A stretch of DNA of 64,000 bases. Source: an uncultured Actinomycetes bacterium. Lineage in GTDB: Bacteria > Actinomycetota > Thermoleophilia > Gaiellales > Gaiellaceae. Under the pieces are notes generated by a model, which saw only the letters and a program-made list of their open reading frames with translations, was not told the origin of the DNA and ran no database searches. Positions 11,101 to 62,907 of this stretch are shown piece by piece. The stretch lies in NCBI GenBank assembly GCA_963836345.1, contig CAWIJA010000007.1, positions 43,092-107,091 on the forward strand, given 5' to 3'. The first letter of the stretch is position 1. Each line of letters begins with the position of its first letter. Position numbers and translations under genes: made by a program.

Positions 11101-11646
11101 GTTGACGAGGTCGCCGGCGACCATGCCCTGGCCGTCCGCGCCGAGCGTTACAGCCGCCTCGCCCGTGAGGACTCCGGCTCGCGCCCGCAGGTCGGGGTCG
11201 AGCAAGGGAACCGTGGCGACGAGATCGAGAGCCGCCCGAACGGCTCGTTCCGCGTCGTCCTCGTTCGCCGCCGGAGCGCCCCACACGGCCATGACCGCGT
11301 CGCCGATGAACTTCTCGACCGTTCCGCCGTAGCGGTCGATCAGCTGCTTGCAGCGCTCGAAGTAGCCGGACAGGAGCTCCCTGACCTCCTCCGAGTCACG
11401 AGACTCCGACAGCGTCGTGAAGCCGACGAGATCGGCGAAGAGAACCGAGACGAGCCGGCGCTCCGAGATGGGAGCCACGGGCGGCGCATGGTTACCGCCG
11501 AGCTGCGCGCCGCACTCGCCGCAGAACTTCTGCCCGGGGGCGTTCTGGGTGCCACATGCAGAGCAGCGAAGAGAGAGCACGGCGCCGCACTCGCCGCAGA
11601 ACTTCTGCCCGGGCGGGTTCTGCTTCCCGCACGCGGGGCAGTTCAT
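8142..11646 (-). pseudogene. double zinc-ribbon / class III adenylate cyclase / AAA NTPase / TPR protein, paralogue 2, split by a 1-nt indel
   Basis: N-terminal part is track ORF 10186..11688, with the real ATG at 11646 (MNCPACGKQNPPGQKFCGECG...). C-terminal part is ORF 8142..10238. The junction ...SLYLEPLSRA / AMEELLSGLVPGLP aligns with the intact paralogue only after a frame change at about 10239-10250. The stop overlaps the paralogue 1 start (ATGA). Confidence 0.7.
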
Positions 11647-14600: not shown

Positions 14601-15119
14601 CGTCACCGCAGCCTCGCCCGTGAGGACGCCGGCCCGGGCACGAAGCTCGGGAGCGCCGACTCCGTCTCCGAGGGCGGCGATCGCCGCGACGAGATCGAGC
14701 GCGGCTCGGACGGCGCGCTCGGAGTCGTCCTCCGTCGCAACCGGAGTTCCCCAGACCGCCATCACCGCGTCCCCGATGAACTTCTCGACCGTCCCGCCGT
14801 AGAGCTCGATCAGCCGACGGCACGTGTCGAAATAGCGGGTGAGGAGCTCGCGCGTGTCCTCGGCATCCTGGGTCTCGGACAGGCTGGTGAACCCGACCAG
14901 ATCGGCGAACAACACCGAGACAAGCTTTCGTTCTGCCGCCGGAGGCGGCGGCGCAGGTTCCGTCTCGCTCTCGAGAGGCGATCCGCACTCGCCACAGAAC
15001 TTGACGCCGGTCGTGTTCGGAGAGCCACAAGCCGGGCAGACGAGCGCGAGCGAGCCGCCGCATTCGCCGCAGTACTTCCGACTGTCGTCGTTGTCCGTTC
15101 CACACGCGGGGCAGCGCAT
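11643..15119 (-). CDS. double zinc-ribbon / class III adenylate cyclase / AAA NTPase / TPR protein, paralogue 3 (intact, 1158 aa)
   Basis: MRCPACGTDNDDSRKYCGECG...CPACGSPNTTGVKFCGECG; FADLVGFT, KFIGDAVMAVWG, GDLVNTASRIQ; Walker A GIAGIGKS; long TPR-like helical region; tail REIFERLEATPWLERV. The stop overlaps the paralogue 2 start (ATGA). Confidence 0.85.
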   Translation of the reverse strand: MRCPACGTDNDDSRKYCGECGGSLALVCPACGSPNTTGVKFCGECGSPLESETEPAPPPPAAERKLVSVLFADLVGFTSLSETQDAEDTRELLTRYFDTCRRLIELYGGTVEKFIGDAVMAVWGTPVATEDDSERAVRAALDLVAAIAALGDGVGAPELRARAGVLTGEAAVTLGAEGQGMVAGDLVNTASRIQSLAEPGSVLVGEATKRATDKTIVYADAGSHELKGKVGLVPLWRALRVVSGARGALKSTGLEAPFVGRDGELRRIKDLFHACSDDRKPQLVSIMGIAGIGKSRLAWEFYKYFDGIAQITYWHRGRCLSYGDGVTYWALADMVRMRARIAEDEEPASALAKIAEIVEQHVTDEEERGFVEPRLRHLLGLEESTRFERDDLFAAWRLFFERLADVYPTVMVFEDMQWADASLLDFIDYLLEWSRSSPLFVVTLARPELQERRPTWGASSRNFTSIYLEPLAEPAMEELLGGLVPGLPEALRRQILDRAEGIPLYAVETVRMLLDRGALVQEGAVYHPTGTVEALEVPETLHALIAARLDGLTPEERRVLQDGAVLGKTFTKQSLAAVSGHSEEELDPILVSLTRKEFFGVQADPRSPEHGQYGFLQDLLRRVAYETLAKRDRKVKHLAAASHLQEAWGEHEVVEVVASHYLDAYEADPDAADGSEIKGKARAALTRAAERAASLGAAEEAQRYFEQSAELSAEPLEQAELLGRAGEMAGRAANPEATRQLLERSISIYEAEGDTHAAARISGRFANVLSFTAHRDEALERMERAFDVIATDEPDEDLALLAAQLSRTYWFSGDLERATERAELALEIAEAQGLPKPLSVGLRAKSAVLASRRRSEEAFALLKHSLEVALEHDLAEDVSTCYFILSDRCFRLDRYADALGYLDEGLTFDRRTGNRRYEWATLAERCYPLLMLGRWDEVLATQNEFTEEQFNSGGVVLSLLQAGVEIHCQRGELDDARQLFSRFARLEASTDVQDRSTHLAVTAALRRAEGRLEEALEAGAATIETAAILGPAFQGVKHGVVDALEAALALGDTARADELLAFVDGLTPGVRPPYLEIHALRLRARLAGDAPGLAAAAARFRALAVPFWLAVTLLEHVEALGGGPAAERPLAEAREIFERLEATPWLERVARIGAEVLA

Positions 15120-34423: not shown

Positions 34424-36946
34424 TCAGGTGGCGAGCGCGACGATCCACGTCAGCGTCCGCGTGCGTCCGTAGGCGTCGGTCGCGGTCAGCGTCACCGTGT
34501 AGCTTCCCGGCCCGAAGAGGAAGGGCCCGAGAGCGAGCCGCGCTGCGCGCCCGAGGAAGTGCTGGTTGACGAGAAGCTTCCCGCCCCGCTTGACGCGGAT
34601 ACGCATGTCCGAGATCTGGTTGGCCTTGGCGTGGAGGGTGACCGACCAGACGTCGCCGGTTCGCGTCACGCTCGGCGCCTCGCGGGTGAGGACGAACGGA
34701 GTAGCCGTCGCGGCGGCTCCGCAGCGGCCGAGACACGCGTTCCAGCGCAGCACGCGACCCGCAAGCCGGACCTCGAACCTGTAGAGGCCGGACTTGGCGA
34801 CCGGGAAGGGGCCGATCGTCGCCCGTCCCGCGGCGACGCGGAGCGAGAGGGACGACGCGACGCGTCCGGCTCGAAGCCCACGAACGCGGGCAATCCCGCC
34901 CTGGGTGGTCGCGAAGCGCAGGGTGACGCGGAAGCCGCCCGCCGCGCGCCTGACGACCGGCGAGCCGAGCGAGGTCAGCACCGCCTTCGGCGCCGGAGGT
35001 CCTGTGGCCGCGCCAGAGAACCTCGCGCCGACCGTCTCCGCGGCGCTCAGGGTCACGGTGCAGGTCCTCTTCGTGCCTGCGCAGGCCCCGCTCCAGCCGA
35101 GGAAGGACGAGCCGGCGAGCGGAGTCGCGGTCAGCGTCGCCTTGGCACCCGCCTTGAAGCTCTGCGTGCAGGTCTTCTGAGCGCCTGTCGACGAGCACGC
35201 GCCGGCGGAGGTCGAGACACTGCCGCGTCCGTTCACAGCCAGGGTGAGGGTGCCGGGCGCTCCGCCGCCGGTGAACGTCGCGGTGACGCTCTTCGCCGCG
35301 GACATGGTCACAGCGCACGTCCTCGCCGTCCCCGTGCACGCACCGCTCCAGCGGCTGAAGAGTGCGCCCGAGGCGGGAGCCGCGGTCAGCGTCACCGTCG
35401 ACCCCGCCGTCTGGCCCGCGCTGCACGTCGAGCCCCCGTTGCCACAGCTGATGCCGCCGCCCGTCACGCGACCGGCTCCCGTCACGGAGACCGAGAGCTG
35501 AAAGGTCGAGGTGCCGCCGGCGAAGGTCGCCGAGACGCTCCTCGCGCTCGTCATCGTCACGGTGCAGGTCGGCGCCGTCCCCGTGCACGCCGCTCCCCAC
35601 CCGCTGAAGGTCGCACCTGTCGAGGGCGTGGCGATCAGGGTGACCGAGGCGCCCGGCGATTGATTGCTGTTGCAGAGCGAGGCGGTGCTACCGCAGTTGA
35701 TTCCGCCCCCGGTGACGGTGCCGTTTCCCGTGACGACGACGCTGAGCGCGAAACCGGTGGTGCCCCCCGGGCCGCTGCCGCCGGTGAAGGTCGCCGTGAC
35801 CGTCTTGGCAGCGCTCATGAGGACCGTGCAGGTGGTCGCCGTTCCACCGCAGGCGCCGGTCCAGCCTGCGAAGATCGCGCCCGTCGTCGGGCTCGCGACG
35901 AGCGTCACGGTCGCGTTCAGCGCAAACGTCCCCGAGCAAACGGAGGCACCGTTGCCGCAGTTGATCGCACCGATCCCTCCCGTGACGCTGCCGTTGCCGG
36001 TGACGGTCACGGTCAAGGGGATGGCGAGCGTGAAGGTCGCCGTGACCGACCTGTCGACGTCCATCGTCAACGTGCAGGTGTTGCCGGTCCCCGAGCACGA
36101 GCTCGTTCCGGTCCAGCCCGTGAAGACGTAACCCTCCTTGGGGCTTGCCGTCAGGGTCACCGTCGTGCCGGGGGGGATCGGCTGCGTACACGTGGCCGGC
36201 CCTGCGCAGTCGATGCCTCCACCGTCCACGGTGCCGCTCCCGGCGACGGAGACGGTCAGGAGCTTGGCCGTATTCGTGCTCGACTTGGACCACGAGGCAC
36301 CGAGCGCCTTACTCTGGGATAGCTCCACCGTGCAGGCGTTTTGGGCGTCGCTGCAGGCCCCGCTCCAGCCGTTGAACACGAAACCGGGATCCGGCGTTTC
36401 GAGCACGGTCAGCGTCGAGCCGGTCAGGACCGTCCAGGAGCAGTCCGTTGCGTCGTCACTCGAGTTCGCGGTCGGGCCGGAACCGCAACTGATCTGTCCT
36501 CCGCCGGTTACGTCGCCGCCGCTGTCGAGAATTGTGTCGGCGTCCGTGTCGACGAGTGTGGCGCTGACGGACAACGTGCTTGTCGTCGTTCCCGGCCCGT
36601 TGAACCGAGCCGTCACTTCGTAGTCGGTCGCGCCACTGAGCTCACATGTGTCGCCCGAGCAGGCTCCTGCCCAGCTGTCGAAGTGCCAGTCGTTCGCTGA
36701 GTCCTTCCAGACGAGCCTGATCGTCCCCGCGCCGCTGGTAAAGGCAACGTGACAGGTCGTCTTCCCGTCGCCGCATTCGATCCCGGACGGGCCGACGCTC
36801 GACACCCGGCCCTTGCCGATCACCTGCACAGTGACGGTCGTGGTCGCGAGCGAGCGGCCGCCGGCGTCGCCCACGCCGAACGCGAGGACGGAAAGGAGAA
36901 TCAGCGGCGCGAGAATCCGTCTCACAGGAAAGGCTCTCCCCTGCAA
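34424..36946 (-). CDS. secreted protein with about 7 divergent InlB B-repeat domains plus a conserved C-terminal domain
   Basis: Signal peptide, then repeats of the form L(T/S)V.V.G.G.V.GGGI.CG...C......G..VTLTA.P..G..F.GW.GAC.G....CTVTM.....V.ATF. TTG 36946 or GTG 36925 start. Confidence 0.7.
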   Translation of the reverse strand: MQGRAFPVRRILAPLILLSVLAFGVGDAGGRSLATTTVTVQVIGKGRVSSVGPSGIECGDGKTTCHVAFTSGAGTIRLVWKDSANDWHFDSWAGACSGDTCELSGATDYEVTARFNGPGTTTSTLSVSATLVDTDADTILDSGGDVTGGGQISCGSGPTANSSDDATDCSWTVLTGSTLTVLETPDPGFVFNGWSGACSDAQNACTVELSQSKALGASWSKSSTNTAKLLTVSVAGSGTVDGGGIDCAGPATCTQPIPPGTTVTLTASPKEGYVFTGWTGTSSCSGTGNTCTLTMDVDRSVTATFTLAIPLTVTVTGNGSVTGGIGAINCGNGASVCSGTFALNATVTLVASPTTGAIFAGWTGACGGTATTCTVLMSAAKTVTATFTGGSGPGGTTGFALSVVVTGNGTVTGGGINCGSTASLCNSNQSPGASVTLIATPSTGATFSGWGAACTGTAPTCTVTMTSARSVSATFAGGTSTFQLSVSVTGAGRVTGGGISCGNGGSTCSAGQTAGSTVTLTAAPASGALFSRWSGACTGTARTCAVTMSAAKSVTATFTGGGAPGTLTLAVNGRGSVSTSAGACSSTGAQKTCTQSFKAGAKATLTATPLAGSSFLGWSGACAGTKRTCTVTLSAAETVGARFSGAATGPPAPKAVLTSLGSPVVRRAAGGFRVTLRFATTQGGIARVRGLRAGRVASSLSLRVAAGRATIGPFPVAKSGLYRFEVRLAGRVLRWNACLGRCGAAATATPFVLTREAPSVTRTGDVWSVTLHAKANQISDMRIRVKRGGKLLVNQHFLGRAARLALGPFLFGPGSYTVTLTATDAYGRTRTLTWIVALAT

Positions 36947-36988
36947 CGCTCGCGGAGCTTACGCATTACAACAGGCATTTGCTACGCA

Positions 36989-38951
36989 TCAGGGGAGGAC
37001 CGCGACCCACGCCAGCCCACGGACCCGGCCGAAGGCGTCGGTCGCGCGCAGCCGCAGCGTGTAGTTGCCCGGCGAGAGCAGGAACGGCCCGGCGCTCACG
37101 AGCCCTGACCGCGAGGCGAACCGCACATCGCGGGCAAGTCGCTTGCCGCGGTAGATACGGAGGCCGACACCGGCCGGCTGCGTCGAGCCGAAGTGGATGC
37201 TGACCGACCACAAGGCGCCCGCGTCGATCACGGTCGCCGCCCGGCGCTCGAGCGTGAAAGGCCCGGCGACCCGGCCGGCCGCCTCGCCGCAGCGGCCGAG
37301 GCAGGCATGCCAGCGAAGCGCACGTCCAGATTGGGTCAGCTCGAAGGCGTAGAAGCCCGCCTTGGCGAGCGGAAACGGGCCGACGGCGGCAAGGCCCGGC
37401 GCGGCGGCGAACGAGAAGGCGGTCTCCAGCCTTCCTGCACGCAGCGCCCGCACACGTACCGTTGCGCGCCGACTCGTTCGAAAGCGGAGCGTGACGGAGA
37501 AGCCGGTTCGCGTCCTGGTGACGACAGGACGACCACGGCTGCGTAAGCCCTCACCGGCTCCGGCGGATCCGGGGGTGGACGCGAACCGGGCCGAGACGGT
37601 CTTCGCCGTGTTCATCTCGACTGTGCACGTCGGGATCCCGCCGGTGCACGCGCCGCCCCAACCAGCGAACGACCAGCCTGCGGCGGGGACTGCCGTCAAC
37701 CCGACGCTCGAGCCCTGGGTTTGCGACGCGCTACAGCTGTTTGCTCCGTTTCCGCACCTGATGCCGCCGCCGCTGACGGTGCCCCGGCCGGCCACCGACA
37801 CGGTGAGTGGAACCTCAGTCGACGCGCCACCCGAGAACGTGGCGTTCACGGTCCGGGCGCTGGACATCGTCAGCGAGCACGTCGGGCTTGTTCCCGAGCA
37901 CGCCCCGCCCCAGCCCTCGAAGGCTCCGCCTTCGGCGGGTGTCGCGGTCAGGGTCACTGCCGATCCGGCCGGCTGGTTCTCCGAGCAGACCGAGCGCCCC
38001 GCGCCGCAGCTCACGCCGCCTCCGGTGACCGTTCCCTCGCCGGACACCGAGACGGTGAGCGGAAAGGTCGACGGGGCCACACCACCACCGCTGCCGGTGA
38101 ACGTCGCGGACACGGTCTGGTCGCTCGACATGGTCAACGTGCACGTCGTTGCCGAGCCCGCACAGGCGCCGCCCCAGCCGGTGAATCCGGCGCCGGAGCC
38201 GGGGGTTGCAGTCAGAATCACCGTCGAGTCGGTCGTCTCGTCGGCGCTGCACTGGGAACCGCCCGCCGACGTGCATGCGATGCCGCTGCCTGTGACCGTC
38301 CCGTTTCCGGCGACTGTCACCGTCAGCTTCTTCGTCGCCGCAGACTTCGCGAATGCCGCATTGACGGTCTGAGACGAGCTCATCGTCACCGTGCAGCTGA
38401 CCGTAGTTCCCGAGCAGGCTCCTCCCCAGCCGGTGAAGTCGTACCCGTCGTCGGGCTCCTCGACCAGCGTCAGCGTCGACCCGGTGTACACACTCGATGT
38501 GCAGTCGGTCTCGCCCGCGTCGCAGTCGATGTCGCCGCCGGTGATCTTCCCGCCGTCTGTGCCGCTGCCGGTGACGTGAACGGTCAGCGTGCTCGTGCCC
38601 GGCGACGTGCCGGGCGTGAACCCCGCCGTCACGTCGTGGTCACCGCCGTCGAGGGCGACCGTGCATTCGTTGTCGGTCGCGCCCGCGCAACCGGTCCAGG
38701 CGTCGAACGTCCATCCGCTTGTGTCGTTCGCGGTCAGCTCGACGGACCCGCTCGTCGCGCTGCTCGTGAAGTAACAGGTACGCCGCCCCGGAACCGCACG
38801 TAATCTGGCCCCCGTCGCTCGTGACCTGGCCGCCGCCGATCACCTGGACGGAAAGCGTCGTCGTGGCAAGGGTTCTCGCGCCTGCGCCTCCGACCCCGAG
38901 CGAGAGCGCCGCGAGGAGCACGAGAGCCCAGCTGGAAGGCGTCCCCCTCAT
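36989..38951 (-). pseudogene. paralogous secreted InlB-B-repeat protein (about 5 repeats), frame broken after the first half-repeat
   Basis: ATG 38951 gives MRGTPSSWALVLLAALSLGVGGAGARTLATTTLSVQVIGGGQVTSDGGQITCGSGAA, then junk. The frame of track ORF 36989..38632 continues upstream as CYFTSSATSGSVELTANDTSGWTFDAWTGCAGATDNECTVALDGGDHDVTAGF. 1-nt indel near 38778-38783. Confidence 0.6.
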
Positions 38952-46981: not shown

Positions 46982-47638
46982 CTAGACGTCCACGACCCAG
47001 AAGGCGACGACGCTGTACTGCAGGGCAACTGCTGCGACCACGAGCACATGAAAGATCTCGTGGTAGCCGAAGACCGTCGGTAAGGGATCGGGACGGCGCA
47101 GCGCATAGACGACGCCGCCGATCGTGTAACAGAGTCCGCCGAGAAGCAAGAGCGTCGTTCCGTCCCAGCCCACGCCTTTGATCAATTGCGGAAGGACGAT
47201 CACTGCGATCCAGCCGAGCGAGATCGCGATCACCGCGGCGAGCCACTTGGGCCCATCCACCCAGGCGAACTTGAGAATGATCGCGGCGGCCGCTCCGCCC
47301 CAAACTACGGCGAGGATGACGGTCCGCCACGTACCCTGCAAGACGAGCAGCCCGAACGGCGTGTAGGTCCCTGCGATCGCAAGGTAGACACCGGCATGGT
47401 CGATGCGCCGCGACCAGCGATAGCCCCTCTCGTTCCACGTCACTCGGTGATGCAGCGCACTGGCGCCGAACATCGCCGCGACAGCCGCTGCGAAGATCGC
47501 CGCCGCAAACTGGACCCGGCCTGGCGGCGCAGCCGCGACCAACAGGCTGCCGACGACCAGCGCGACGAAAAAGGCGCACAGGTGGAACACCCCTCGCAAG
47601 ATTGGCCGCGCGCGGCCTTCGAGTGAGTCAGCAGGCAT
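46982..47638 (-). CDS. hemolysin III (PAQR/YqfA) family membrane protein
   Basis: RGVFHLCAFFVAL...SALHHRV...RRIDHAGVYLAIAGTYTPF...FGYHEIFHVLVV. Confidence 0.85.
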   Translation of the reverse strand: MPADSLEGRARPILRGVFHLCAFFVALVVGSLLVAAAPPGRVQFAAAIFAAAVAAMFGASALHHRVTWNERGYRWSRRIDHAGVYLAIAGTYTPFGLLVLQGTWRTVILAVVWGGAAAAIILKFAWVDGPKWLAAVIAISLGWIAVIVLPQLIKGVGWDGTTLLLLGGLCYTIGGVVYALRRPDPLPTVFGYHEIFHVLVVAAVALQYSVVAFWVVDV

Positions 47639-48937: not shown

Positions 48938-49933
48938 TCAGGCCAAGATCGGTCTGACAGGAGCGTTTCGGGCTACAAAGCGAATCGCCAGCGATGCCAG
49001 CACACCGCAGATGGATGCGGCGACCGCACTCAGTACGAGCAGGAGCCCGGACGCCAGCGAGAAGTTGATCGCGATGTCCTTGCCCACGCCGAGCGCGAGC
49101 AGGACTCCCGCGGCTGCACCGGCATTCACGACGGCCCCGCCGGAGGTGATCGGAATCACAGAAGCCGCCGCACCGAGACAGATGACGGCGAGCGCGGCCT
49201 CAGGCGAGAACGGGAACCCCAGAGCGCTGAGAAGAGCAGCGCTGCCGAAGGCACGCGTCGACCAGCAGGCGAAGAGGTAGAACCACGCCACGATCGCGTC
49301 CTTGCGGCCACCAACCGCCGTGTGCCGGGCGACGTGCTCGCCGAGGGCGCGCAGTCGGCGGCTTCGACGCAGCGCGGGCAGACGCATCAGTCGCTCGCTG
49401 GCGACGAGCAGCGTGCAGCAGGCGATCCCGAACGCGACGACGACTAGCAACGGAGCGCGCAGGAGTGAGCTGCTCGTCGCCGACGCCGAAATCGACAACG
49501 GCAACATCGCGATCGCGTCGATCATCCCGAGCGAGATGATCGAGAGGACGATCGCGCCGATCCCGACCCGAATCCCTCCCAGCTTCTGCAGCATTCCCAC
49601 CTTGATGAGGTAGTCCAGGCGAAAGGGCAGGACGGCTCCACTCGCAGCGCCTGCGCCCACGGATGCGAGGCAACGACCCTGGTCGGGACATTCGTCCGGC
49701 GGAAAGAGCCTGTGCCAGCCTCGCGCGCGAAAGACAAGACTCGCGAGATAGGCAAGCGCAGCTGCTGCGACGAGTGCCGGCTCCGCATGATCGAGGGGCC
49801 AGCTCGAATGCGTGAGCCGTCGGGCAACGAGGATCGACGCGGCTACCGTCAGCAGCGCAAAAGCGGCTCCCACGATTAGACGGCGACGCCGATCACGCCC
49901 ATGACGAGGCGTGTCTCGAGCCAGACCGTTCAC
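48938..49933 (-). CDS. UPF0104 / LPG-synthase-TM (flippase-like) family membrane protein, copy A
   Basis: GTG 49933, 2 nt after the upstream stop. LASLVFRARGWHRLFPPDECPDQGRCLASVGAGAASGAVLPFRLDYLIKVGML..., 8 TM. About 80% identical to 56217..57299. Confidence 0.6.
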   Translation of the reverse strand: MNGLARDTPRHGRDRRRRLIVGAAFALLTVAASILVARRLTHSSWPLDHAEPALVAAAALAYLASLVFRARGWHRLFPPDECPDQGRCLASVGAGAASGAVLPFRLDYLIKVGMLQKLGGIRVGIGAIVLSIISLGMIDAIAMLPLSISASATSSSLLRAPLLVVVAFGIACCTLLVASERLMRLPALRRSRRLRALGEHVARHTAVGGRKDAIVAWFYLFACWSTRAFGSAALLSALGFPFSPEAALAVICLGAAASVIPITSGGAVVNAGAAAGVLLALGVGKDIAINFSLASGLLLVLSAVAASICGVLASLAIRFVARNAPVRPILA

Positions 49934-49934
49934 A

Positions 49935-50330
49935 TTACGCCGGGAGGAGCAGGCAGTGGTCGCCCTCGGTCTGCTCGACGACACCCGGAACCTGGGAGAA
50001 GACCGCCATCATGAACGCCGAGCAGCGACCCGGGTCCAGGACGTCCTGGCGACGGATGCGGCCAAGGCGCTCGAACGTCCCCCAGCACTCCCGAATGTCG
50101 TCGAGCGCTATCCACCGCGAGCTCGTCGTGGAGTCGAGCATCAGGCGGCGGCCGCGATGATAGCTCGTGATCTGGTTGGTCGCGCCAAGGATGCCGGGCA
50201 AGGCCTCGCCCGTATCCGCGAGCCGAGTGAGCACACCCTCGACGTCCTCCCAGCACGGGACACGGTGGCGCGATGGCGCTCCGGCGCCGGCAGAGAACTG
50301 CGGTTCCGAAACCTTGGACGGTGCACCCAT
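49935..50330 (-). CDS. hypothetical protein (131 aa)
   Basis: ATG 50330 after GAAGGGA. MGAPSKVSEPQFSAG...WIALDDIRECWGTFERLGRIRRQDVLDPGRCSAFMMAVFSQVPGV. Confidence 0.45.
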   Translation of the reverse strand: MGAPSKVSEPQFSAGAGAPSRHRVPCWEDVEGVLTRLADTGEALPGILGATNQITSYHRGRRLMLDSTTSSRWIALDDIRECWGTFERLGRIRRQDVLDPGRCSAFMMAVFSQVPGVVEQTEGDHCLLLPA

Positions 50331-55023: not shown

Positions 55024-55413
55024 TCAGCGGCGGGCGAGACGGCGGCCGCTCACCGTGGTCGGAGCGGTGTAGTTCATCTCGAAGTGGTGGTACAGCCTGG
55101 ACTCGTCAGCCTGAGAGAGCTCGTCGCCGTGCAGCTCGATGTTTGGCGCCGCCTTGACTGTGTCCGCGGACACCGCGACCTGCAGGTGGTCGGGCCCTGT
55201 CGTCACTCCAGCGAGTGGGACGAACGTGAGGTGGCGGCCGATGAAGCCTTCTTTCACCGTGGCGAACATGGGCTCGTCGGTCTCGACATCGACGTAGACG
55301 TCCTGGAGCTTGCCGATCTTCTCCCCCGCGCTGTCGATCAAGTCCTTGCCCTGCCACTCGGCTAGATTCGGCTGGGTCAACGATCTGCTCCCTTCCTCGC
55401 TTTCGGCGGACAT
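55024..55413 (-). CDS. PRC-barrel domain protein
   Basis: ATG 55413: MSAESEEGSRSLTQPNLAEWQGKDLIDSAGEKIGKLQDVYVDVETDEPMFATVKEGFIGRHLTFVPL. Confidence 0.6.
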   Translation of the reverse strand: MSAESEEGSRSLTQPNLAEWQGKDLIDSAGEKIGKLQDVYVDVETDEPMFATVKEGFIGRHLTFVPLAGVTTGPDHLQVAVSADTVKAAPNIELHGDELSQADESRLYHHFEMNYTAPTTVSGRRLARR

Positions 55414-55636
55414 ACGAACCGTCAACCTGCTCGAGGTGGGCGAATCGTAGCGCAGGCAAGGCAGATCGAAGGCACAGCGGTGCACGATTGCCGCTAGGCT
55501 GGATGTGCGCGTAGGCCTAGCGCGGAAGCCGGCGAGGCTCGCACGATTCCTTTCTGACTGTCAGACCTGGCCTGAGTGCAAGAGGGGAGCTCGTCCTGAG
55601 CTCGCCGACCCTGAGAGATGACAGTTGGGAGCAGAG

Positions 55637-55954
55637 ATGCATGCGACCGTGAGACGCTACGAAGGAATCGACCAGAGCAGCAAGGACGAGCTGACGCGCA
55701 AGGTCGGCGAGTCGTTGATGCCGAGGTTGAGCAAGCTGCCGGGCTTCAACGGCTATTACCTGATCGAGTCTGGGAACGGCGTGTTCACGTCCGTCGGCCT
55801 CTTCGACGACTCGACCCAGGCCGAAGAGTCGACGCGCGTCGCCTCCGGCTGGGTGGTCGACCAGAAGCTCGAGTCGATCCTTCCGAACCCGCCGAAGGTC
55901 ACGACCGGCGAGGTCATCGCGCACAGGGTCACGAACGGATCGGTTCGGGCGTAA
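55637..55954 (+). CDS. ABM-like (dimeric alpha/beta-barrel) small protein
   Basis: GGGAG 5 nt before ATG 55637. MHATVRRYEGIDQSSKDELTRKVGESLMPRLSKLPGFNGYYLIESGNGVFTSVGLFDD. Confidence 0.5.
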   Translation: MHATVRRYEGIDQSSKDELTRKVGESLMPRLSKLPGFNGYYLIESGNGVFTSVGLFDDSTQAEESTRVASGWVVDQKLESILPNPPKVTTGEVIAHRVTNGSVRA

Positions 55955-55982
55955 CAGCAGAACGCACCCTGCTCGAGAACGC

Positions 55983-56007
55983 AGAGGGCCCGCATCGCGG
56001 GCCCTCT
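55983..56007. terminator. 11-bp perfect hairpin between convergent genes
   Basis: AGAGGGCCCGC-atc-GCGGGCCCTCT. Confidence 0.55.
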
Positions 56008-56034
56008 CGCGTCTTCAGTCACCCTGCCGTCTTC

Positions 56035-56220
56035 CTATTCTGCGGCGCCTCCCTCACCTTCCCAGACCCGGAGCGCGTCGCTCTCCCCAGGTCGGGCGCG
56101 CTTCTCGGCAGCGAGGCTGTTTCTGTACGCCTCGTACGCCTTCAGCACTTGAAGGTCGTGCCGGCCTCTTCCCGGAAAGAAGCGGGCGGAGAACGCCTGC
56201 CAGTCGAGACGCGAGGTCAC
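56035..56220 (-). CDS. small protein (61 aa) ending in a WEGEGG motif
   Basis: GTG 56220 overlaps the stop of the upstream UPF0104 gene (GTGA). VTSRLDWQAFSARFFPGRGRHDLQVLKAYEAYRNSLAAEKRARPGESDALRVWEGEGGAAE. Confidence 0.45.
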   Translation of the reverse strand: MTSRLDWQAFSARFFPGRGRHDLQVLKAYEAYRNSLAAEKRARPGESDALRVWEGEGGAAE

Positions 56221-57299
56221 GGGCGCGCCTTCACCGTGGTGATCGGCACGAGCGCGACTTCTCCGCGCGAGAGGTTGTGGCGGGCCACTGCCCGGATCGC
56301 AAGCGAGGCGAGGACGCCCATGACGGCGGCGACGATCGCACTGGCCACGAGCAGGAGGCCTGACGCAAGCGAGAAGTTGATCGCGATGTCCTTGCCGACG
56401 CCGAGCGCAAGGAGGATGCCGGCGGTTGCGCCGGCGCCGACGACGGCGCCGCCGGAGGTGATCGGGATCACGCCGGCGGCGGCGGCGAGGCAGATCACGG
56501 CGAGCGCGGTTGCCGGCGAGAAGGAGAGCCCGAGCGCAGTGAGCAGCGCGGCGCTGCCGAAAGCACGCGTCGACCAGCAGGCGAACAGATAGAACCAGGC
56601 CACGGTTGCGTCGCGGCGCCCACGTCTCGTCGTGTGCCGGGCGACGTGCTCGCTGATCGTGCGCAAGCGACGGCTCCGGCGTAGCAGCGGCAGGCCGATC
56701 AGGCGTCCGCCGACGACCAGCAGGGTGCAGCAGGCGATGCCGAAGACGACGACGATCAGCAGCGGGCCGCGGAGGGCAGAGCCGCTCGTCGCCGTCGCCG
56801 AGATCGAGAGCGGCAGCATCGCGATTGCGTCGATCATCCCGAGCGACACGATCGATAGGACGATTGCCTCGAAGCCGATGCGAATGCCGCCGAGCTTGCG
56901 CAACATGCCGACCTTGATCAGGTAGTCGAGACGGAAAGGAAGCACCGCCCCGCTCGCCGCGGCGGCGCCGACCGAGGCGAGACACCGGGCTTGGTCAGGA
57001 CACTCGTCCGGTGGGAAGAGCCTGTGCCAGCCGCGAGCGCGAAAGAGGTAGCTGGCGAGGTAGGAGAGAGCAGCAACGGCGACCAGCGCAGGCTGGGCGT
57101 CAGCGAGCGGCCAGCTCTCCTGCGTCAATCGCCGGCCGACCAGCAACGCGGCGGCGACCGTGATCAACCCGAACGCCAGGCTCGCGACCAGCCGAGCCCG
57201 ATGACGCGGAGCGGTGCTCTTGACCGTGCTCGCCGGCGGTGAGCGCGGCCAGTCGGCCCCTCCCGCAGGAGGTACCGCGGAGATGACCCTCGTCGACAT
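56217..57299 (-). CDS. UPF0104 / LPG-synthase-TM (flippase-like) family membrane protein, copy B
   Basis: LASYLFRARGWHRLFPPDECPDQARCLASVGAAAASGAVLPFRLDYLIKVGML... The start overlaps the upstream stop (TGATG). Confidence 0.6.
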   Translation of the reverse strand: MSTRVISAVPPAGGADWPRSPPASTVKSTAPRHRARLVASLAFGLITVAAALLVGRRLTQESWPLADAQPALVAVAALSYLASYLFRARGWHRLFPPDECPDQARCLASVGAAAASGAVLPFRLDYLIKVGMLRKLGGIRIGFEAIVLSIVSLGMIDAIAMLPLSISATATSGSALRGPLLIVVVFGIACCTLLVVGGRLIGLPLLRRSRRLRTISEHVARHTTRRGRRDATVAWFYLFACWSTRAFGSAALLTALGLSFSPATALAVICLAAAAGVIPITSGGAVVGAGATAGILLALGVGKDIAINFSLASGLLLVASAIVAAVMGVLASLAIRAVARHNLSRGEVALVPITTVKARP

Positions 57300-57673
57300 C
57301 AGACTCGTGGTGCCCGCGTATGCCAGCGGAAGAGGGCGCTACTGACGATCCCGAGCAGCCAACCAAGGATCGCGGAGAAGAGGATGATCCAGACGAGCGA
57401 GGCGCTCGACGAGCCGACCACCCAGCTCAGCTTGACCTGACGCGTGTTCGCCACCACGAGCGCCACCAGGCAAACAAGCAGCGCGACCGTGAAGAACGCG
57501 TAGGCGTGGAAGCGAGTCCGCCGGGCCTTGCGACCGAAGCGCTCTCCGCGGGTCTCACCGGCCACGGGCGCCACAGAAGCATCAGTCGAGGTCTCGTCTG
57601 CCAGAGCGGGCTTTCCGTTCTGGGTCGGGTCGGGTGCGGGCAGGATCCTGGTTTCGGTCTGCTCCGTGGACAT
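57299..57673 (-). CDS. LapA-domain (DUF1049-like) membrane protein
   Basis: FHAYAFFTVALLVCLVALVVANTRQVKLSWVVGSSSASLVWIILFSAILGWLLGIV. Confidence 0.55.
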   Translation of the reverse strand: MSTEQTETRILPAPDPTQNGKPALADETSTDASVAPVAGETRGERFGRKARRTRFHAYAFFTVALLVCLVALVVANTRQVKLSWVVGSSSASLVWIILFSAILGWLLGIVSSALFRWHTRAPRV

Positions 57674-57693
57674 GGCCTCCCTTTCGTACTCGT

Positions 57694-57894
57694 TCAGAGA
57701 CTGCTACTTACGAGCATGGGCGGGCGCGTAACGTCGGTGACCGTGCTGGACTGAGCCGTGTTGCCAGAGATGCGGATCAGGTAGCTGCGGTCGCCGTAGA
57801 GCACCTTGGCGCAGGGAAGCCGAGCGGCTTCCAGCCAGCGCTCGACAAGCGAGAGAAGCTCCAGGACCCAACGCGACGCAGGTGCTTCGGTCAT
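57694..57894 (-). CDS. small protein (66 aa), short paralogue of 59709..60125
   Basis: ATG 57894 after GGGAG. MTEAPASRWVLELLSLVERWLEAARLPCAKVLYGDRSYLIRISG... Confidence 0.45.
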   Translation of the reverse strand: MTEAPASRWVLELLSLVERWLEAARLPCAKVLYGDRSYLIRISGNTAQSSTVTDVTRPPMLVSSSL

Positions 57895-58100
57895 CTCTTC
57901 TCCCGTGGTCAGAAGCCTTGGTCGCCGACCACGCTGGACGGGGCCGGCCGGGAACTGCTCCAACCCGCGTCGTCTGTGGGAGGACATCCGCCGGGCTACA
58001 CGGTTTGAGCCCGGCCATCACTCCGCAGCGCCGAGATGTACGACACCGCTATGTCAGACTTTAGCACCTTTCGCGGCCTCCAGCCCCCTTTCCAGGCGGG
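57730..58100 (-). repeat. copy 1 of the duplicated module (3' two-thirds of the small ORF plus ~200 nt of conserved upstream leader)
   Basis: By-eye alignment to 59750..60328. 35-nt core 57953-57987 versus 60180-60214, with one mismatch. Confidence 0.7.
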
Positions 58101-58752
58101 AGTAGAATCCGATATTCCTGCCGAGCCCATGCCAGAGAGTGATGTCCAGCACCTGCGCGTCCTGATCGCGAACGAGAAGCGCGACCGGCTCGAGTTACTC
58201 GCCCAGGTCGTGATCGGTCTCGGACACGACGTGATCGCCCGCGAGATCTACGTCAGGGAAGTCGGCGCGGTCACGGCCAGGGAGCACCCTGACGTCGCCC
58301 TGGTCGGGCTCGGGTCGAGCTCGGACCACGCGCTCGAACTGATCTCGGAGATTGTCCGTGAAGCCTCCTGCCCGGTGATCGCGATCCTCCATGCCGACGA
58401 TCCTGGTTACGTCCACGAGGCGGCCAAGCGCGGCGTGTTCGCCTATCTCATCGACGGCACCCCCGACGAGCTGCAAAGCGCAATCGACATCACGCTCCAG
58501 CGCTTCAGCGAGTACCAGAGCCTCCAGGGGGCGTTCGGGCGACGCGCCCTGATCGAGCAGGCGAAGGGGATCCTCATGGCCCGCCACTCGATCAGCGCCG
58601 ACCTCGCCTTCGAGCGCCTTCGCGACCATTCGCAACACGACGGCCGCAAACTGAGCGACGTCGCCGCCGCCGTCGTCGAGAGTCACCTCCTGCTTCTTCC
58701 TCCGGCGCCGCAGACACTCCCGCCCGACCCCGCCGATGCCGGCGTTTCTTAG
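58036..58752 (+). CDS. ANTAR-domain regulator with a degenerate (pseudo-)receiver domain; start uncertain (58036, 58051 or 58129)
   Basis: ANTAR: RALIEQAKGILMARHSISADLAFERLRDHSQHDGRKLSDVAAAVV. REC-like: LRVLIANEKRD...PDVALVGLG...PVIAILHAD...AYLIDGT. Confidence 0.8.
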   Translation: MYDTAMSDFSTFRGLQPPFQAGVESDIPAEPMPESDVQHLRVLIANEKRDRLELLAQVVIGLGHDVIAREIYVREVGAVTAREHPDVALVGLGSSSDHALELISEIVREASCPVIAILHADDPGYVHEAAKRGVFAYLIDGTPDELQSAIDITLQRFSEYQSLQGAFGRRALIEQAKGILMARHSISADLAFERLRDHSQHDGRKLSDVAAAVVESHLLLLPPAPQTLPPDPADAGVS

Positions 58753-58784
58753 CCGCCTGTTCGCGGTCGACCCGCTCCCCTGAT

Positions 58785-58818
58785 GGGCAAGGGCCGCGCT
58801 TGTGGGCGGCCCTTGCCC
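58785..58818. terminator. 13-bp perfect hairpin between convergent genes
   Basis: GGGCAAGGGCCGC-gcttgtgg-GCGGCCCTTGCCC. Confidence 0.6.
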
Positions 58819-58828
58819 GCTCGTGGTG

Positions 58829-59698
58829 TTAGCCGTTGAGGTTGACGTCCACCGAGAAGAGACGCCGGGTCGAGATCCCACCGAGGAGGTTCTCGCCTGA
58901 CTTTCGCGCCCGCACGAAGACCGCGACCAGTCCCTGCTTGGAGCTGACCGGGAACCCGGTCAGCATGCGGAAGTTGAGCTCCGCCCAGCCGTCCTGGCCG
59001 GTCGTCTGCTCGGGCGGGATCGACAGTTGGCCGAACGGGACGGCGGTCGCATAGACCAGCGCGCCCTGCACCGACCGGCCGCCGCATGCGGAGACGTGGT
59101 AGCGCACGATCAGCTGCTGTGTCCCACGGTTGACCACCGACGGGTTGGCCTGCTGCCCGTCGATCAACAGCCGTGCCGGCGGGCTCAGACCAGCGACCTG
59201 GACGGGGCCGGAGCCGGTCGGGCAACCCGTGGCCGCCGGGGGAGGCGCCGTAGGCGGCTTGTCAGCGGCGGCGATGACGGCGGTCGGCACCGAGGACGCG
59301 GTCGCGCTGCCGTCCGCGTTCTTCGCCTGCACCTTGAACCGGACCGTGTTCCCCACGTCGGTCGAGGTCAGCGTGTAGATCAGAGCGTGGGCGCCGCTGA
59401 TGTTCGCGCAACTGCCGCCGGTCTTGTCGCAGCGAGTCCAGAAGTAGTTGTAGTCGGTCGGCTGTTCACTCCACTTGCCCCTGACCGCGGTCAGCTTCTG
59501 GCCCTCCTGTGGCGTGCCGGTGATCGTCGGCGGCGACGTGTTGACGGGCTTGCCTGCTCCGGCCGCGGCGCCGGCGCCGGCGAAGACGGCCAGCGCGGAG
59601 ACGACGACGGCGGCGACGCCCGCCCCGAAGATCCCACCGAGGAACACCCAGCGTTTCCTCTGAGGGCGCACGATCGTCCTGCGTTGCTCTTGCAACAT
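58829..59698 (-). CDS. membrane-anchored/secreted protein with an Ig-like repeat domain
   Basis: ATG 59698, 7 nt after an AGGAG that overlaps the upstream stop. TM WVFLGGIFGAGVAAVVVSALAVF, then PPTITGTPQEGQKLTAVRGKWSEQPTDYNYFWTRCDKTGGSCANISGAHALIYTLTSTDVGNTVRFKV. Confidence 0.6.
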   Translation of the reverse strand: MLQEQRRTIVRPQRKRWVFLGGIFGAGVAAVVVSALAVFAGAGAAAGAGKPVNTSPPTITGTPQEGQKLTAVRGKWSEQPTDYNYFWTRCDKTGGSCANISGAHALIYTLTSTDVGNTVRFKVQAKNADGSATASSVPTAVIAAADKPPTAPPPAATGCPTGSGPVQVAGLSPPARLLIDGQQANPSVVNRGTQQLIVRYHVSACGGRSVQGALVYATAVPFGQLSIPPEQTTGQDGWAELNFRMLTGFPVSSKQGLVAVFVRARKSGENLLGGISTRRLFSVDVNLNG

Positions 59699-59708
59699 GG
59701 TTGTACTC

Positions 59709-60125
59709 CTAACGACTAGTCGGGACATCGGCGGAGAGCACCCCAGGCGGTTCGGTGACGTTCCCGAAATGACCGGTGGAGGTGCGGATCAGATAGCTAC
59801 GGCCGCCGTAGAGCACCTTTGCGCAGGGAAGTCGAGCGGCCTCGAGCCAACGTTCGACCAGCGAGAGAAGCTCCAGCACCCATCCTCCTCCCACCGGCGG
59901 CTGCAACCTGACAATCCAGCCAGAGCTGGACACGACCTCGGCCGGAAATAACGGCGCGGCGTACTCCAGGAGGAGGCTGGTGCAGTATGGGTCGTGGGCG
60001 ACGATCTCGACCGGTTGGGCGCTCTCGGGACTCCAGGCGGTCGACGTGCGCGGACGCGACCTGGGAGCGGGGCGCGGACGTCTCCGGCCACGCTTGCGAA
60101 CCGGCAATGCGGGTGCTTCGGTCAT
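59709..60125 (-). CDS. small protein (138 aa), long paralogue of 57694..57894
   Basis: ATG 60125 after GGAG. MTEAPALPVRKRGRRRPRPAPRS...VEIVAHDPYCTSLLLEYAAPLFPAEVVSSSGWIVRLQPPVGGGWVLELLSLVERWLEAARLPCAKVLYGGRSYLIRTS. Confidence 0.5.
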   Translation of the reverse strand: MTEAPALPVRKRGRRRPRPAPRSRPRTSTAWSPESAQPVEIVAHDPYCTSLLLEYAAPLFPAEVVSSSGWIVRLQPPVGGGWVLELLSLVERWLEAARLPCAKVLYGGRSYLIRTSTGHFGNVTEPPGVLSADVPTSR

Positions 60126-60328
60126 GTCGTCTCCGTGGTCGAGGCCTGAACGCCGACCATCTGACTGGGGTCGGCCGCCAACTGCTCCAACCCGCATCGT
60201 CTGTGGGAGGACATTTCGCCGGGCCACATGCCTTGGGACCCGGCGAGCACTCCGCAGCACCGATGTTTACGGCACCGCCAACACGAAGACTAGCATTCTC
60301 CGCCCTCGGGCCTTCCCCCTTCCGGGGC
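59750..60328 (-). repeat. copy 2 of the duplicated module
   Basis: See 57730..58100. Contains 216 extra nt inside the ORF. Confidence 0.7.
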
Positions 60329-60412
60329 ATTGGATGCTGGCGACCCGGCCACAGTCCCCGGGAGAGAAGCTGAGTTGATCACGCGCAGCATGCCGCGTCG
60401 GCACGTAGACGT

Positions 60413-60853
60413 CTAGGCGCTGCTCGACGTATTCAGGGCAACGGCGGAGCGAACGAGAGCCTTGAAAGCCTTCTCGTCGATCTCTTCTCCCTCGTGGATC
60501 ACGATGGCGCGCAAGGCGTTGCCTTCGAGGCTGGCGTTGAAGAGGCCTTCCGGGTCCTCGAGAAAAGCTCCCTTGGGGAAGGTCAGCCTCACGTGGTTCT
60601 TGTAGGACTCGCCGGTGCAGATGATCTTGTCGTGGTACCACACCGGAACCCCGGCGGGGTTCGTGGGCTTCCTCCACTTCACGTCCTCGACCACCTCGGG
60701 GTCGGCTTGCTTGATGAGAGTACGGAGCCGGGTGAGCGTCTCACCCCGCCAGTCGCCCAGCTCCCTGATCCTCGCGTCTATCAACTCAGACGGGGACCCG
60801 GGGTTCTGCGGAGCGCCCTTCTTCACGACATCCCTCTCTTCTGGGCGGCTCAA
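60413..60853 (-). CDS. DUF1801 (YdhG-like) domain protein
   Basis: ELIDARIRELGDWRGETLTRLRTLIKQADPEVVEDVKWRKP...YKNHVRLTFPKGAFLEDP. Confidence 0.65.
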   Translation of the reverse strand: MSRPEERDVVKKGAPQNPGSPSELIDARIRELGDWRGETLTRLRTLIKQADPEVVEDVKWRKPTNPAGVPVWYHDKIICTGESYKNHVRLTFPKGAFLEDPEGLFNASLEGNALRAIVIHEGEEIDEKAFKALVRSAVALNTSSSA

Positions 60854-61265
60854 CGCAGCTCCTGGATCCGGATCAGGTTGCCCGCGGGATCGCGGACGGC
60901 GCAGTCGCGAAGGCCGTACGGCTGCTCGGTCGGCTCCTGGACGACCTCGGCGTGGCGGGCCTCCAGCTGCTCGAAGGTGCCGTCGAGGTCGGCGGTGGCC
61001 AGGTTGATGCTGGCATAGGTCCCCTTGGCCATCATCTCGGCGATGGTGCGGCGCTCGTCGTCGGTGACACCGGGGGATGCGGCCGGCGGATACAGCACGA
61101 TTGACGTGCCGGGCTGGCCGGCGGGGCCGACGGTGATCCAGTGCATCCCGCCGTATTCGACGTCGTTGCGGACCTCGAAGCCGAGGGTGTCGCGATAGAA
61201 GGCGAGGGATGCGTCCGGGTCGTCGTGTGGGAGAAAGCTCGCGTGAATGGTGATTTCCATGGCAG

Positions 61266-61269
<4 letters not shown>
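60850..61269 (-). CDS. VOC/glyoxalase family protein
   Basis: ATG 61269 overlaps the AraC stop (ATGA). MTAMEITIHASFLPHDDPDASLAFYRDTLGFEV...VRDPAGNLIRIQE. Confidence 0.75.
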
Positions 61270-61760
<491 letters not shown>

Positions 61761-61870
61761 AGGCCGGCCGCTGTTTTCGATCTCAAATGGCGTGGTCGAC
61801 CCGCGCGACCGCAGCGGCTCGACTTGCCGGATTACCGAGCCGAGCCGCCGCGGTCAAGCGGCCTTTCTAG

Positions 61871-62062
61871 CTAGGCGTCATGAGGCCGAGCTCCCGGGAG
61901 CTCGCTCCAGTGTTCCGGGCGCTCGACGCGCCAGCGGTCTCGGAATGCCGCGTTTGCCTCCGCGCCCGAACTCGTGTCCTGCTCGACACTCGCGCCGTAG
62001 CGCAGTGCAACGTCCGAGCGCTTGTAGACGCGCCAGAACGTCAACCTCGCGTCGGAGCGCAT
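61871..62062 (-). CDS. hypothetical small protein (63 aa), weak call
   Basis: High GC3, AGGGG 6 nt before the ATG. MRSDARLTFWRVYKRSDVALRYGASVEQ... Confidence 0.3.
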   Translation of the reverse strand: MRSDARLTFWRVYKRSDVALRYGASVEQDTSSGAEANAAFRDRWRVERPEHWSELPGARPHDA

Positions 62063-62275
62063 CAGGCCCCTACACGAAGAAACCCGGGGGGCGGCCTGCC
62101 CGATTTTGTGCTAAACTGCACATTGGAAACACCGGGCCAGTCGCGCTGACGGCATCGCGCCGTCGAGCCGCCAGCTTCTTCTCCTCGATGCAACCGCGTC
62201 TCAGCCGTCGCGCTGAGCCAGCCGTTCGGAGGCTCGCCTCTGGGATGCTGCCTGCTTCGAAAGAAGGAGAACACC

Positions 62276-62758
62276 ATGACAACACTGGTTCGCTTTGATC
62301 CCGCTCGTGAGGTCAGTGCTCTGCAAGGTGAAATGGGCCGCTTCATGAACCTGCTGCTCGCCGGGGTACCCGGAAGCAGAGGCACAACGCAGGGCGTCTG
62401 GGCCCCGGCGATGGATGTGTGGGAGACGGACAACGAGATCGTGTACGCGTTCGATCTGCCCGGCATCCCGAAGGAAACGGTCTCGATCGAGTTTCAGAGC
62501 GGCGTTCTGACAGTCAGTGCCGAGCGTGAGCGCTCAGACGAAATCGAGAGCGATCGGCTGTACCGCTTCGAGCGCCGCTACGGGAGCTTCTCGCGGACGA
62601 TCGGGCTGCCGCAGGGTGTGGTCGAGGATCAGATCTCGGCTCGCTTCGAAGACGGTGTGCTCGAAGTCCACGTGAGCAAGCCCGAGGTGGAGAAGCCGCA
62701 TCAGATTCAGATCGGCAACGGCAAGGCCGCGATCGAAGGCAAGGCGACGAAGGCGTAA
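62276..62758 (+). CDS. Hsp20/alpha-crystallin family small heat-shock protein
   Basis: WAPAMDVWETDNEIVYAFDLPGIPKETVSIEFQSGVLTVSAER...FERRYGSFSRTIGLPQGV...ARFEDGVLEVHV. Confidence 0.9.
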   Translation: MTTLVRFDPAREVSALQGEMGRFMNLLLAGVPGSRGTTQGVWAPAMDVWETDNEIVYAFDLPGIPKETVSIEFQSGVLTVSAERERSDEIESDRLYRFERRYGSFSRTIGLPQGVVEDQISARFEDGVLEVHVSKPEVEKPHQIQIGNGKAAIEGKATKA

Positions 62759-62770
62759 CGCGCCCGCACA

Positions 62771-62816
62771 GGTAGACGAAAAGGGGCGGCGACTCAGCCG
62801 CCCCTTTTCGTCTACC
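62771..62816. terminator. bidirectional intrinsic terminator (20-bp perfect stem with A/T tracts)
   Basis: GGTAGACGAAAAGGGGCGGC-gactca-GCCGCCCCTTTTCGTCTACC, 13 nt after the hsp20 stop. Confidence 0.8.
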
Positions 62817-62907
62817 TGAACCGAAGGATCCGGGGCCGCCCGTGCGGGCGGCTTTGGGTCGGTCGTCGGCAGAGGCAGACGATGCCGCCCGCCGTAAGTG
62901 TGAGAGG

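Follow-up and report, generated by a model that had tools for sequence, protein, structure and literature searches.

A structured mRNA leader of uncultured Gaiellales, most likely a translational switch read by an adjacent ANTAR protein

What has been kept, in two copies, on the two sides of a single ANTAR regulator gene in an uncultured actinobacterium? The DNA in question is a stretch of 64,000 nucleotides (nt) from contig CAWIJA010000007.1 (assembly GCA_963836345.1, positions 43,092 to 107,091), here called the window, which belongs to the Gaiellales, a major actinobacterial order of soils that is abundant, uncultured and almost without genetics. Each copy of the conserved block ends, on the minus strand, at the Shine-Dalgarno sequence (SD) and start codon of a small open reading frame (ORF). 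Here we report that the block is a structured mRNA leader of about 165 nt, and that it is most likely a translational switch that the adjacent ANTAR protein would read.

Reading and aligning the minus strand over 55500-62500 placed the two copies where a preliminary description of this DNA had put them, copy 1 at 57895-58055 and copy 2, of about 160 nt, at 60126-60284 (both minus), with covariance-model matches of 134-144 bits and 171-173 bits (E ~1e-35), respectively. Over the stretch from the first hairpin (P1) to the ATG, the leaders agree at 123/151 aligned positions (81.5%), and 5' of the -10 box they are unalignable, with 44% identity. The five indels between them measure 1, 1, 1, 2 and 1 nt, and the core is crossed by long ORFs whose frames differ between the copies (MSSHRR in copy 1, NVLPQT in copy 2), so that the preliminary description was right both in that the indels are not multiples of three and in that the frames differ. 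A 34-nt core, TGTCCTCCCACAGACGAYGCGGGTTGGAGCAGTT, occurs in the 64 kb only at 57953-57986 and 60180-60213, while the shuffled sequences lead one to expect 0 occurrences. The four-fold sites of the coding block shared by the small ORFs differ at 7/21, against a leader divergence of 18.5%, a contrast that is not significant with the two window copies alone and that is decided by the cross-species data.

A covariance search of the whole window with all filters off returned exactly two leaders, and no third, weaker one upstream of the UPF0104 paralog, PRC-barrel or HlyIII genes. The first of these, a flippase-like LPG_synthase_TM paralog at 48938-49984 (minus), has 79% protein identity to the product of 56217-57299 and no leader upstream. 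The PRC-barrel gene (55024-55485, minus) and the HlyIII gene (46982-47638, minus) are also without a leader here; their homologs in other Gaiellales contigs (L095, L092, L063 and L078) do have one.

The leader is widespread in uncultured soil actinobacteria of the Gaiellales. We collected 28 genome loci that encode homologs of the small protein, from metagenome-assembled genomes (MAGs) labelled Gaiellaceae, Gaiellales, Thermoleophilia or 'Actinomycetes', and in most of them the leader core lies just upstream of the small ORF. An alignment of 19 sequences (A3) was made into a covariance model (R1), which found full-length leaders in almost all of the genome loci, often two or three per locus. 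Scanning metagenomes with the DNA pattern GTCCTCCCN{9,12}GGGTTGGAGN{20,45}GGTCGGC gave at least 120 matching stretches, and a second model (R2) recovered 119 leaders at E<1e-3; these lie in the 28 loci from Gaiellales MAGs and in some 70 contigs from soil metagenomes. The conservation in relatives for which the preliminary description had proposed a search is therefore present. The Rfam scan that it had also proposed, made with the Rfam 15 covariance models, gave no match over either leader, even at E<=10; the matches elsewhere in the region at this threshold were chance microRNA (miRNA) or small RNA (sRNA) matches. No match to the leader was found in the plasmid and phage records searched, which speaks against the mobile-element end that had been named as a possible explanation. 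A literature search returned nothing on ANTAR in Gaiellales, nor on RNA motifs in Thermoleophilia. Our verdict is that the leader represents a previously undescribed structured family.

From 5' to 3' the leader consists of P1, a linker of about 10 nt, a second hairpin (P2), segment A, the conserved stretch CACAGnCGAUGC, segments B, C, D and E, the SD and GACAUG. The consensus P1 has 8 bp and a 7-nt loop, UAAnCAU, while P2 has 9-11 bp and a loop of ~9-13 nt; the linker between these tandem hairpins measures about 9-11 nt, P2 ends ~75 nt upstream of the SD, and the consensus of segment B is GGGUUGGAG. In copy 2 (all minus) P1 occupies 60255-60277, where CGGUGCCG pairs with CGGUGCUG around the loop UAAACAU, and P2 occupies 60217-60245, where CGCCGGGUC pairs with GGCCCGGCG. 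Segment A, the near-invariant anti-SD AUGUCCUCCC, lies at 60205-60214, and segment B, GCGGGUUGGAG, able to pair with A (leaving the SD free) or with C, at 60185-60195. Segments C (GCCGACCC) and D (GGUCGGC) span 60152-60175, their C:D hairpin alternating with B:C plus D:E, and segment E (CGACC), the SD and GACAUG span 60123-60141, with the SD GGAG at 60131-60134 and the start codon at 60123-60125. The corresponding parts of copy 1 (minus) are P1 at 58026-58048, P2 at 57989-58016, the anti-SD at 57978-57987, B at 57958-57968, C at 57941-57948, D at 57924-57930, E at 57907-57911 and the SD at 57900-57904. No U-tract terminator was found in the leader, as the preliminary description had cautioned.

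An extended -10 box, TGnTAnnnT, is found in the same position in 17/19 of the aligned loci, and since it is conserved before the leader, each copy probably has its own promoter. The box reads TGcTAAAGT in copy 1 (58058-58066, minus) and TGcTAGTCT in copy 2 (60287-60295, minus). The 5' end of each copy would probably lie a few bases before P1, and from the -10 box that of copy 2 is predicted at ~60281. Copy 2 had been taken for an internal leader within an AraC-VOC-DUF1801 transcript; it need not be, as it has the same conserved extended -10 box as the others. A scan for a sigma-70 consensus promoter found none, its criteria being too E. coli-like; it was the alignment that revealed the TGnTAnnnT box.

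The case for an RNA structure rests on pair counts made over 115 distinct leaders. Compensatory changes occur at 8/8 pairs of P1 and at 9/9 pairs of P2, and the AUGUC:GACAU helix that closes on the start codon has changes on both sides at 5/5 pairs, while CUCC:GGAG is invariant and is paired in 97.5% of cells. The observed pairing values were reached by 0/500 shuffles, and slid controls were paired in 22-54% of cells as against the 93-95% observed. Over P1 and P2 together, G-U plus U-G amount to 190 and A-C plus C-A to 27, and this excess indicates a structure in the sense-strand RNA, not a DNA palindrome. Some divergent copies mask the SD by other sequences, for example AUCCG:CGGAU in L035 403-518 and a contiguous GUCCUCCC:GGGAGGAC in the L078 leader. 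The covariation, the strand-specific G-U excess and the frame-independent conservation show that what is conserved is RNA; the earlier claim had been that it is RNA or DNA and not protein. That the leader is a structured cis-regulatory RNA we consider very probable.

How could such a leader act? Its near-invariant anti-SD, AUGUCCUCC, is complementary to the SD and the start codon. RNAalifold independently picks the fold in which the SD is sequestered (OFF: A:SD/AUG, B:C and D:E), and the single-sequence minimum free energy structure of copy 2 is this OFF fold too. With A paired to B and C to D, these segments can give another fold, in which the SD is left free (ON). One position in C varies (AU 79, GU 23, GC 3), and since an A or a G there pairs with U both in B and in D, the variation is tolerated by both folds. 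Constrained folding of 100 leaders gave E(ON)-E(OFF) = 0.4 +/- 7.8 kcal/mol, and in both window copies the OFF fold is favoured by ~4 kcal/mol. Sequestration of the SD is thus a likely property of the leader, and the SD/AUG-masking fold, together with the lack of a U-tract terminator, suggests that control would be exerted on translation initiation.

The first codons behind the leader form an observation of their own. Unrelated leader-controlled proteins begin alike (MTEAPALP, MTETPAS, MSTAPT), in the window at 60104-60125 and 57873-57894 (minus) and also in L088, L095 and L066. Positions +12 to +18 (ACCCGCA) are complementary to segment B (UGCGGGU), and the differences between the window copies at this place keep the pairing. 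A pairing of segment B with these codons 4-6 is possible in ~55-75% of leaders, with the B side invariant, and we do not regard it as established.

What, then, would read the switch? The window has a single ANTAR gene (the sole tblastn match), and its two flanks hold the only two leaders. It lies at 58129-58752 on the plus strand, its start being corrected here from the 58036 given previously, and it encodes a 207-aa regulator with a pseudo-receiver domain and a C-terminal ANTAR domain (PF03861, 66.5 bits, E 1.7e-18, cut-off 27.3). The closest solved structures are Rv1626 (1S8N) and 6WSH, the latter deposited as 'response regulator'. Where Rv1626 has its phospho-acceptor D65, the window protein has a Gly, as do 103/103 homologs, and for this reason the receiver is classed as a pseudo-receiver. 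At the 3' end of the gene, a terminator-like GC hairpin is followed by TTTCTT (58731-58744, plus).

The ANTAR gene travels with the leader. It stands beside the leader or the small ORF in 24/28 genome loci, with 80-94% protein identity by tblastn, and it is usually divergent across the leader, though directly downstream of the small ORF in some loci. The metagenome contigs were chosen by the DNA pattern only, and 49/79 of them carry the ANTAR gene; where a contig extends at least 1.5 kb on both sides of the leader, the gene is found within 1.5 kb in 14/14. Several metagenome contigs have one ANTAR gene between two leaders, as in the window, and in 3 cases the leader directly precedes the ANTAR gene itself. 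By synteny the link is very strong. For the putative trans factor no other candidate comes close to the adjacent ANTAR protein, and we lean towards it, by a little, as the putative reader of the leaders, the role that the preliminary description had proposed for it.

Comparison with known systems points both ways. Canonical ANTAR-target RNA has dual stem-loops with hexanucleotide loops carrying A1 and G4 and a 2-25-nt linker (PMC8164766), and in mycobacteria the ANTAR targets are controlled at the ribosome-binding site (RBS) and start codon, not at a terminator (PMC8164766, 10.1101/660928, PMC12591593). Like the target leaders of EutV, AmiR, NasR and Rv1626/PdtaR, the present element is a cis 5' leader beside an ANTAR gene, with tandem hairpins, a linker of ~10 nt and mutually exclusive pairings, and it resembles the mycobacterial Rv1626/PdtaR targets in its predicted control at the RBS and start codon. 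It differs from the RNA described in PMC8164766 in having no A1/G4 hexaloops (the loop of P1 has 7 nt, that of P2 ~9-13 nt) and in that P2 does not lie over a terminator or over the RBS and start codon, the SD being masked by a separate anti-SD. At ~165 nt, with five or six helices and a dedicated anti-SD, it is also much larger than the known leaders.

A further parallel concerns the protein. AmiR has no phospho-acceptor Asp and is controlled by sequestration by AmiC, not by phosphorylation (PMC12591593). As in AmiR/AmiC and NasT/NasS, an ANTAR domain is joined here to a receiver without the phospho-acceptor Asp, and there is a conserved adjacent partner-like gene. In contrast to those systems, no gene for a periplasmic-binding-protein-type sensor is found near the leader loci, and the leader has no terminator. 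The neighbours here differ from AmiC and NasS in being proteins of ~120-140 aa, either ferredoxin/ACT-like or of a CxC family, neither with a Pfam match.

Taken together, these features suggest the following mechanism. Each leader would be transcribed from its own extended -10 promoter and would fold into the P1 and P2 hairpins, followed by the near-invariant switch region. In the OFF fold the anti-SD would lie on GGAG..GACAUG and enclose the B:C and D:E hairpins, so that translation would be blocked; in the ON fold GGGUUGGA would hold the anti-SD (A:B), C would pair with D, and the SD would be free. The adjacent pseudo-receiver ANTAR protein would bind the leader and shift the balance between the folds, as a translational counterpart of ANTAR antitermination, and the small proteins whose genes come first after the leader may be partners of the ANTAR protein, in a role like that of AmiC for AmiR. 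The data show conservation, RNA structure, complementarity to the SD and AUG, and synteny; which way the regulation runs, that the ANTAR protein binds and what the small proteins do is what we infer. To this explanation as a whole, an own-promoter structured leader with an SD/AUG switch shifted by the adjacent ANTAR protein, we give a probability of roughly 55%, and it is the best that we have. A broader proposal, that this is a new class of ANTAR-read riboregulator with a non-hexaloop RNA, an anti-SD/SD switch, new small partners (ferredoxin/ACT-like and CxC) that control the ANTAR protein instead of sensors of the AmiC or NasS type, and a multi-target Gaiellales regulon, is tentative and we would put it below even odds.

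Several results weigh against this explanation. Dual A1/G4 hexaloops occur in 1/98 leaders, as compared with a mean of 3.2 in shuffles, which bears out a caveat of the preliminary description; the leader is therefore not in the ANTAR-target family as now defined, and it may still work likewise. In 4 genome loci there is a leader and no ANTAR gene within ~6 kb. The A:B, B:C, C:D and D:E helices hardly vary, which leaves covariation unable to discriminate between the folds, and part of the invariance of the core helices was forced by the metagenome pattern itself. Moreover the alignment behind the pair counts was fitted to the OFF structure, and the single-sequence folding z-scores are weak (-1.4 and -1.0), being uninformative at 65% GC.

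If the ANTAR gene were a mere neighbour or a member of the regulon, the leader could be a riboswitch, with P1/P2 and the invariant core serving to sense a small molecule or an ion. The leader does combine a conserved structured element with an expression platform, as metabolite riboswitches do: it is long and covarying, has ~30 near-invariant nucleotides, and resembles SD-sequestering riboswitch platforms in its anti-SD on the SD and AUG, its alternative helix and its near-equal energies. The missing hexaloops and the varied genes behind it, phosphoketolase and HlyIII among them, fit such a sensor as well. However, the gene context differs from that of SD-sequestering riboswitches in indicating no ligand, since no shared metabolite emerges from the downstream genes, of which most encode uncharacterised small proteins, and a riboswitch leaves unexplained why an ANTAR gene that is usually divergent, and hence not leader-controlled, lies within 1.5 kb in 14/14 contigs. 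This strict co-location with the gene of an RNA-binding protein points to a protein effector, and we consider the riboswitch unlikely. Slightly less likely still is autoregulation, in which the small proteins (MTEAPA and CxC) would act on the leader of their own mRNA through Arg-rich disordered N-termini that could bind RNA hairpins, with the ANTAR protein acting elsewhere or as a cofactor. About 80/124 leaders precede one of these two families, the MTEAPA protein has an Arg-rich N-terminus of low predicted local distance difference test (pLDDT) score and a ferredoxin-like core, and the first codons are common to unrelated downstream proteins. Yet the leader also stands before PRC-barrel, HlyIII, phosphoketolase and membrane-protein genes with no small protein in front, copy 1 of the window has an intact leader and a truncated small protein, and no match specific to RNA binding was found for the small-protein fold.

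An RNA thermometer, or another factor-independent element that masks the SD, would likewise close its structure with an anti-SD:SD helix and hold two folds near in energy. RNA thermometers are short and poorly conserved in sequence, whereas in this leader ~30 bases are invariant, two further hairpins covary and the synteny with the ANTAR gene is strict, which makes such an element improbable. The lowest weight goes to conservation of DNA as a promoter or operator, or to a neutral leftover of duplication or the end of a mobile element. Two back-to-back promoters do lie in the intergenic region of copy 1, and the window copies taken alone do not differ significantly from neutral divergence. The DNA-level alternative is already contradicted by the covariation, with compensatory changes in 17/17 P1/P2 pairs and a strand-specific ratio of G-U to A-C of 190 to 27. 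The block is kept across many genomes, always in the sense orientation and always ending at an SD and ATG, which argues against DNA-level conservation and a mobile end alike, and the lack of a match in plasmid or phage records counts against the mobile end in particular.

Turning to the genes behind the leader, the first is a member of the MTEAPA small-protein family in 56 cases. In copy 2 it is an ORF of 138 aa (59709-60125, minus) with an Arg-rich disordered N-terminus and a ferredoxin/ACT-like core, and in copy 1 one of 66 aa (57694-57894, minus), a truncated paralog without residues ~7-81 of the copy 2 protein. The two share a block of 33 codons with 10 synonymous and 1 non-synonymous codon differences, and this synonymous excess identifies the block as real coding sequence under purifying selection. 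The 138-aa protein has 325 homologs, the named ones from Gaiellaceae, and no match in Pfam or NCBIfam. Its AlphaFold2 model has block-mean pLDDT values of 85-94 over residues 39-114, arranged as beta-alpha-beta-beta-alpha-beta-beta, and Foldseek returned for this model only generic ferredoxin-fold, ACT and HMA matches (best E 7.6e-3). In ~25 cases the leader is followed by a member of another small family, marked by a CxC..C motif and likewise unmatched in Pfam. This is the second most common gene in this place, and an ANTAR gene often follows it; its motif, LRCECxxPxCR...VVRAADRFFVVE, is seen in L009 4884-5044 (minus), L029, L074, L093 and others. In further cases the first gene encodes a phosphoketolase, a membrane protein, HlyIII-type or other, or a PRC-barrel protein.

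In the window, copy 1 leads on to a LapA-like gene (57299-57673, minus), an LPG_synthase_TM/flippase-like gene (56217-57299, minus) and a WEGEGG peptide of 61 aa (56035-56220, minus), which is coupled to the flippase-like gene by a GTGA overlap. This gene order is syntenic in L003, L009, L010 and L023, and the WEGEGG ORF is kept in synteny in many loci. In the copy 2 operon the small ORF is followed by a gene for an Ig-like secreted protein (58829-59698, minus), which is syntenic in both L003 and L018. As described previously, genes overlap at TGATG and GTGA, and an SD overlaps a stop at TAGGAG. The idea that each leader heads an envelope operon is weakly founded, since the LapA match and the IG_AIR9 match of the Ig-like protein are both below the Pfam cut-offs and elsewhere the leader precedes PRC-barrel, HlyIII, phosphoketolase and CxC-family genes.

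The closest locus found, L003, suggests how the present arrangement arose. There a single leader, divergent from the ANTAR gene, heads the series small ORF, Ig, LapA, UPF0104 and WEGEGG. Window positions 60326-58785 align with its leader, small ORF and Ig gene, 58729-57872 with its ANTAR gene and leader, and 57675-56023 with LapA, UPF0104 and WEGEGG. From these alignments it follows that an ancestral single operon was split across the ANTAR gene and its leader duplicated, one copy for each half; that each half kept a leader argues that one is needed before both.

Three other features of the window lie apart from this system. At 4683-15119 three paralogous units of ~3.5 kb stand in tandem, sharing 67-80% identity along most of their length, and positions 35007-38437 hold nine repeat copies with a ~250-nt period, 63-78% identical, which look like a repeated domain in a large gene. 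A 24-bp near-perfect hairpin at 62765-62822, just after an Hsp20-like gene (62276-62758), is probably a terminator; its reading as an miRNA was rejected as a chance Rfam match.

ANTAR regulators are widespread, and their RNA targets are now sought by one signature, the dual A1/G4 hexaloops. In the Gaiellales a subfamily of ANTAR proteins is accompanied by a large and well-defined RNA without this hexaloop signature. The analysis yields a covariance model, an SD-switch mechanism open to test and, as candidates for the signal input, two small-protein families not yet characterised. If binding were confirmed, the recognition repertoire of ANTAR proteins would be wider than the signature allows, and signature-based searches would be missing whole classes of targets.

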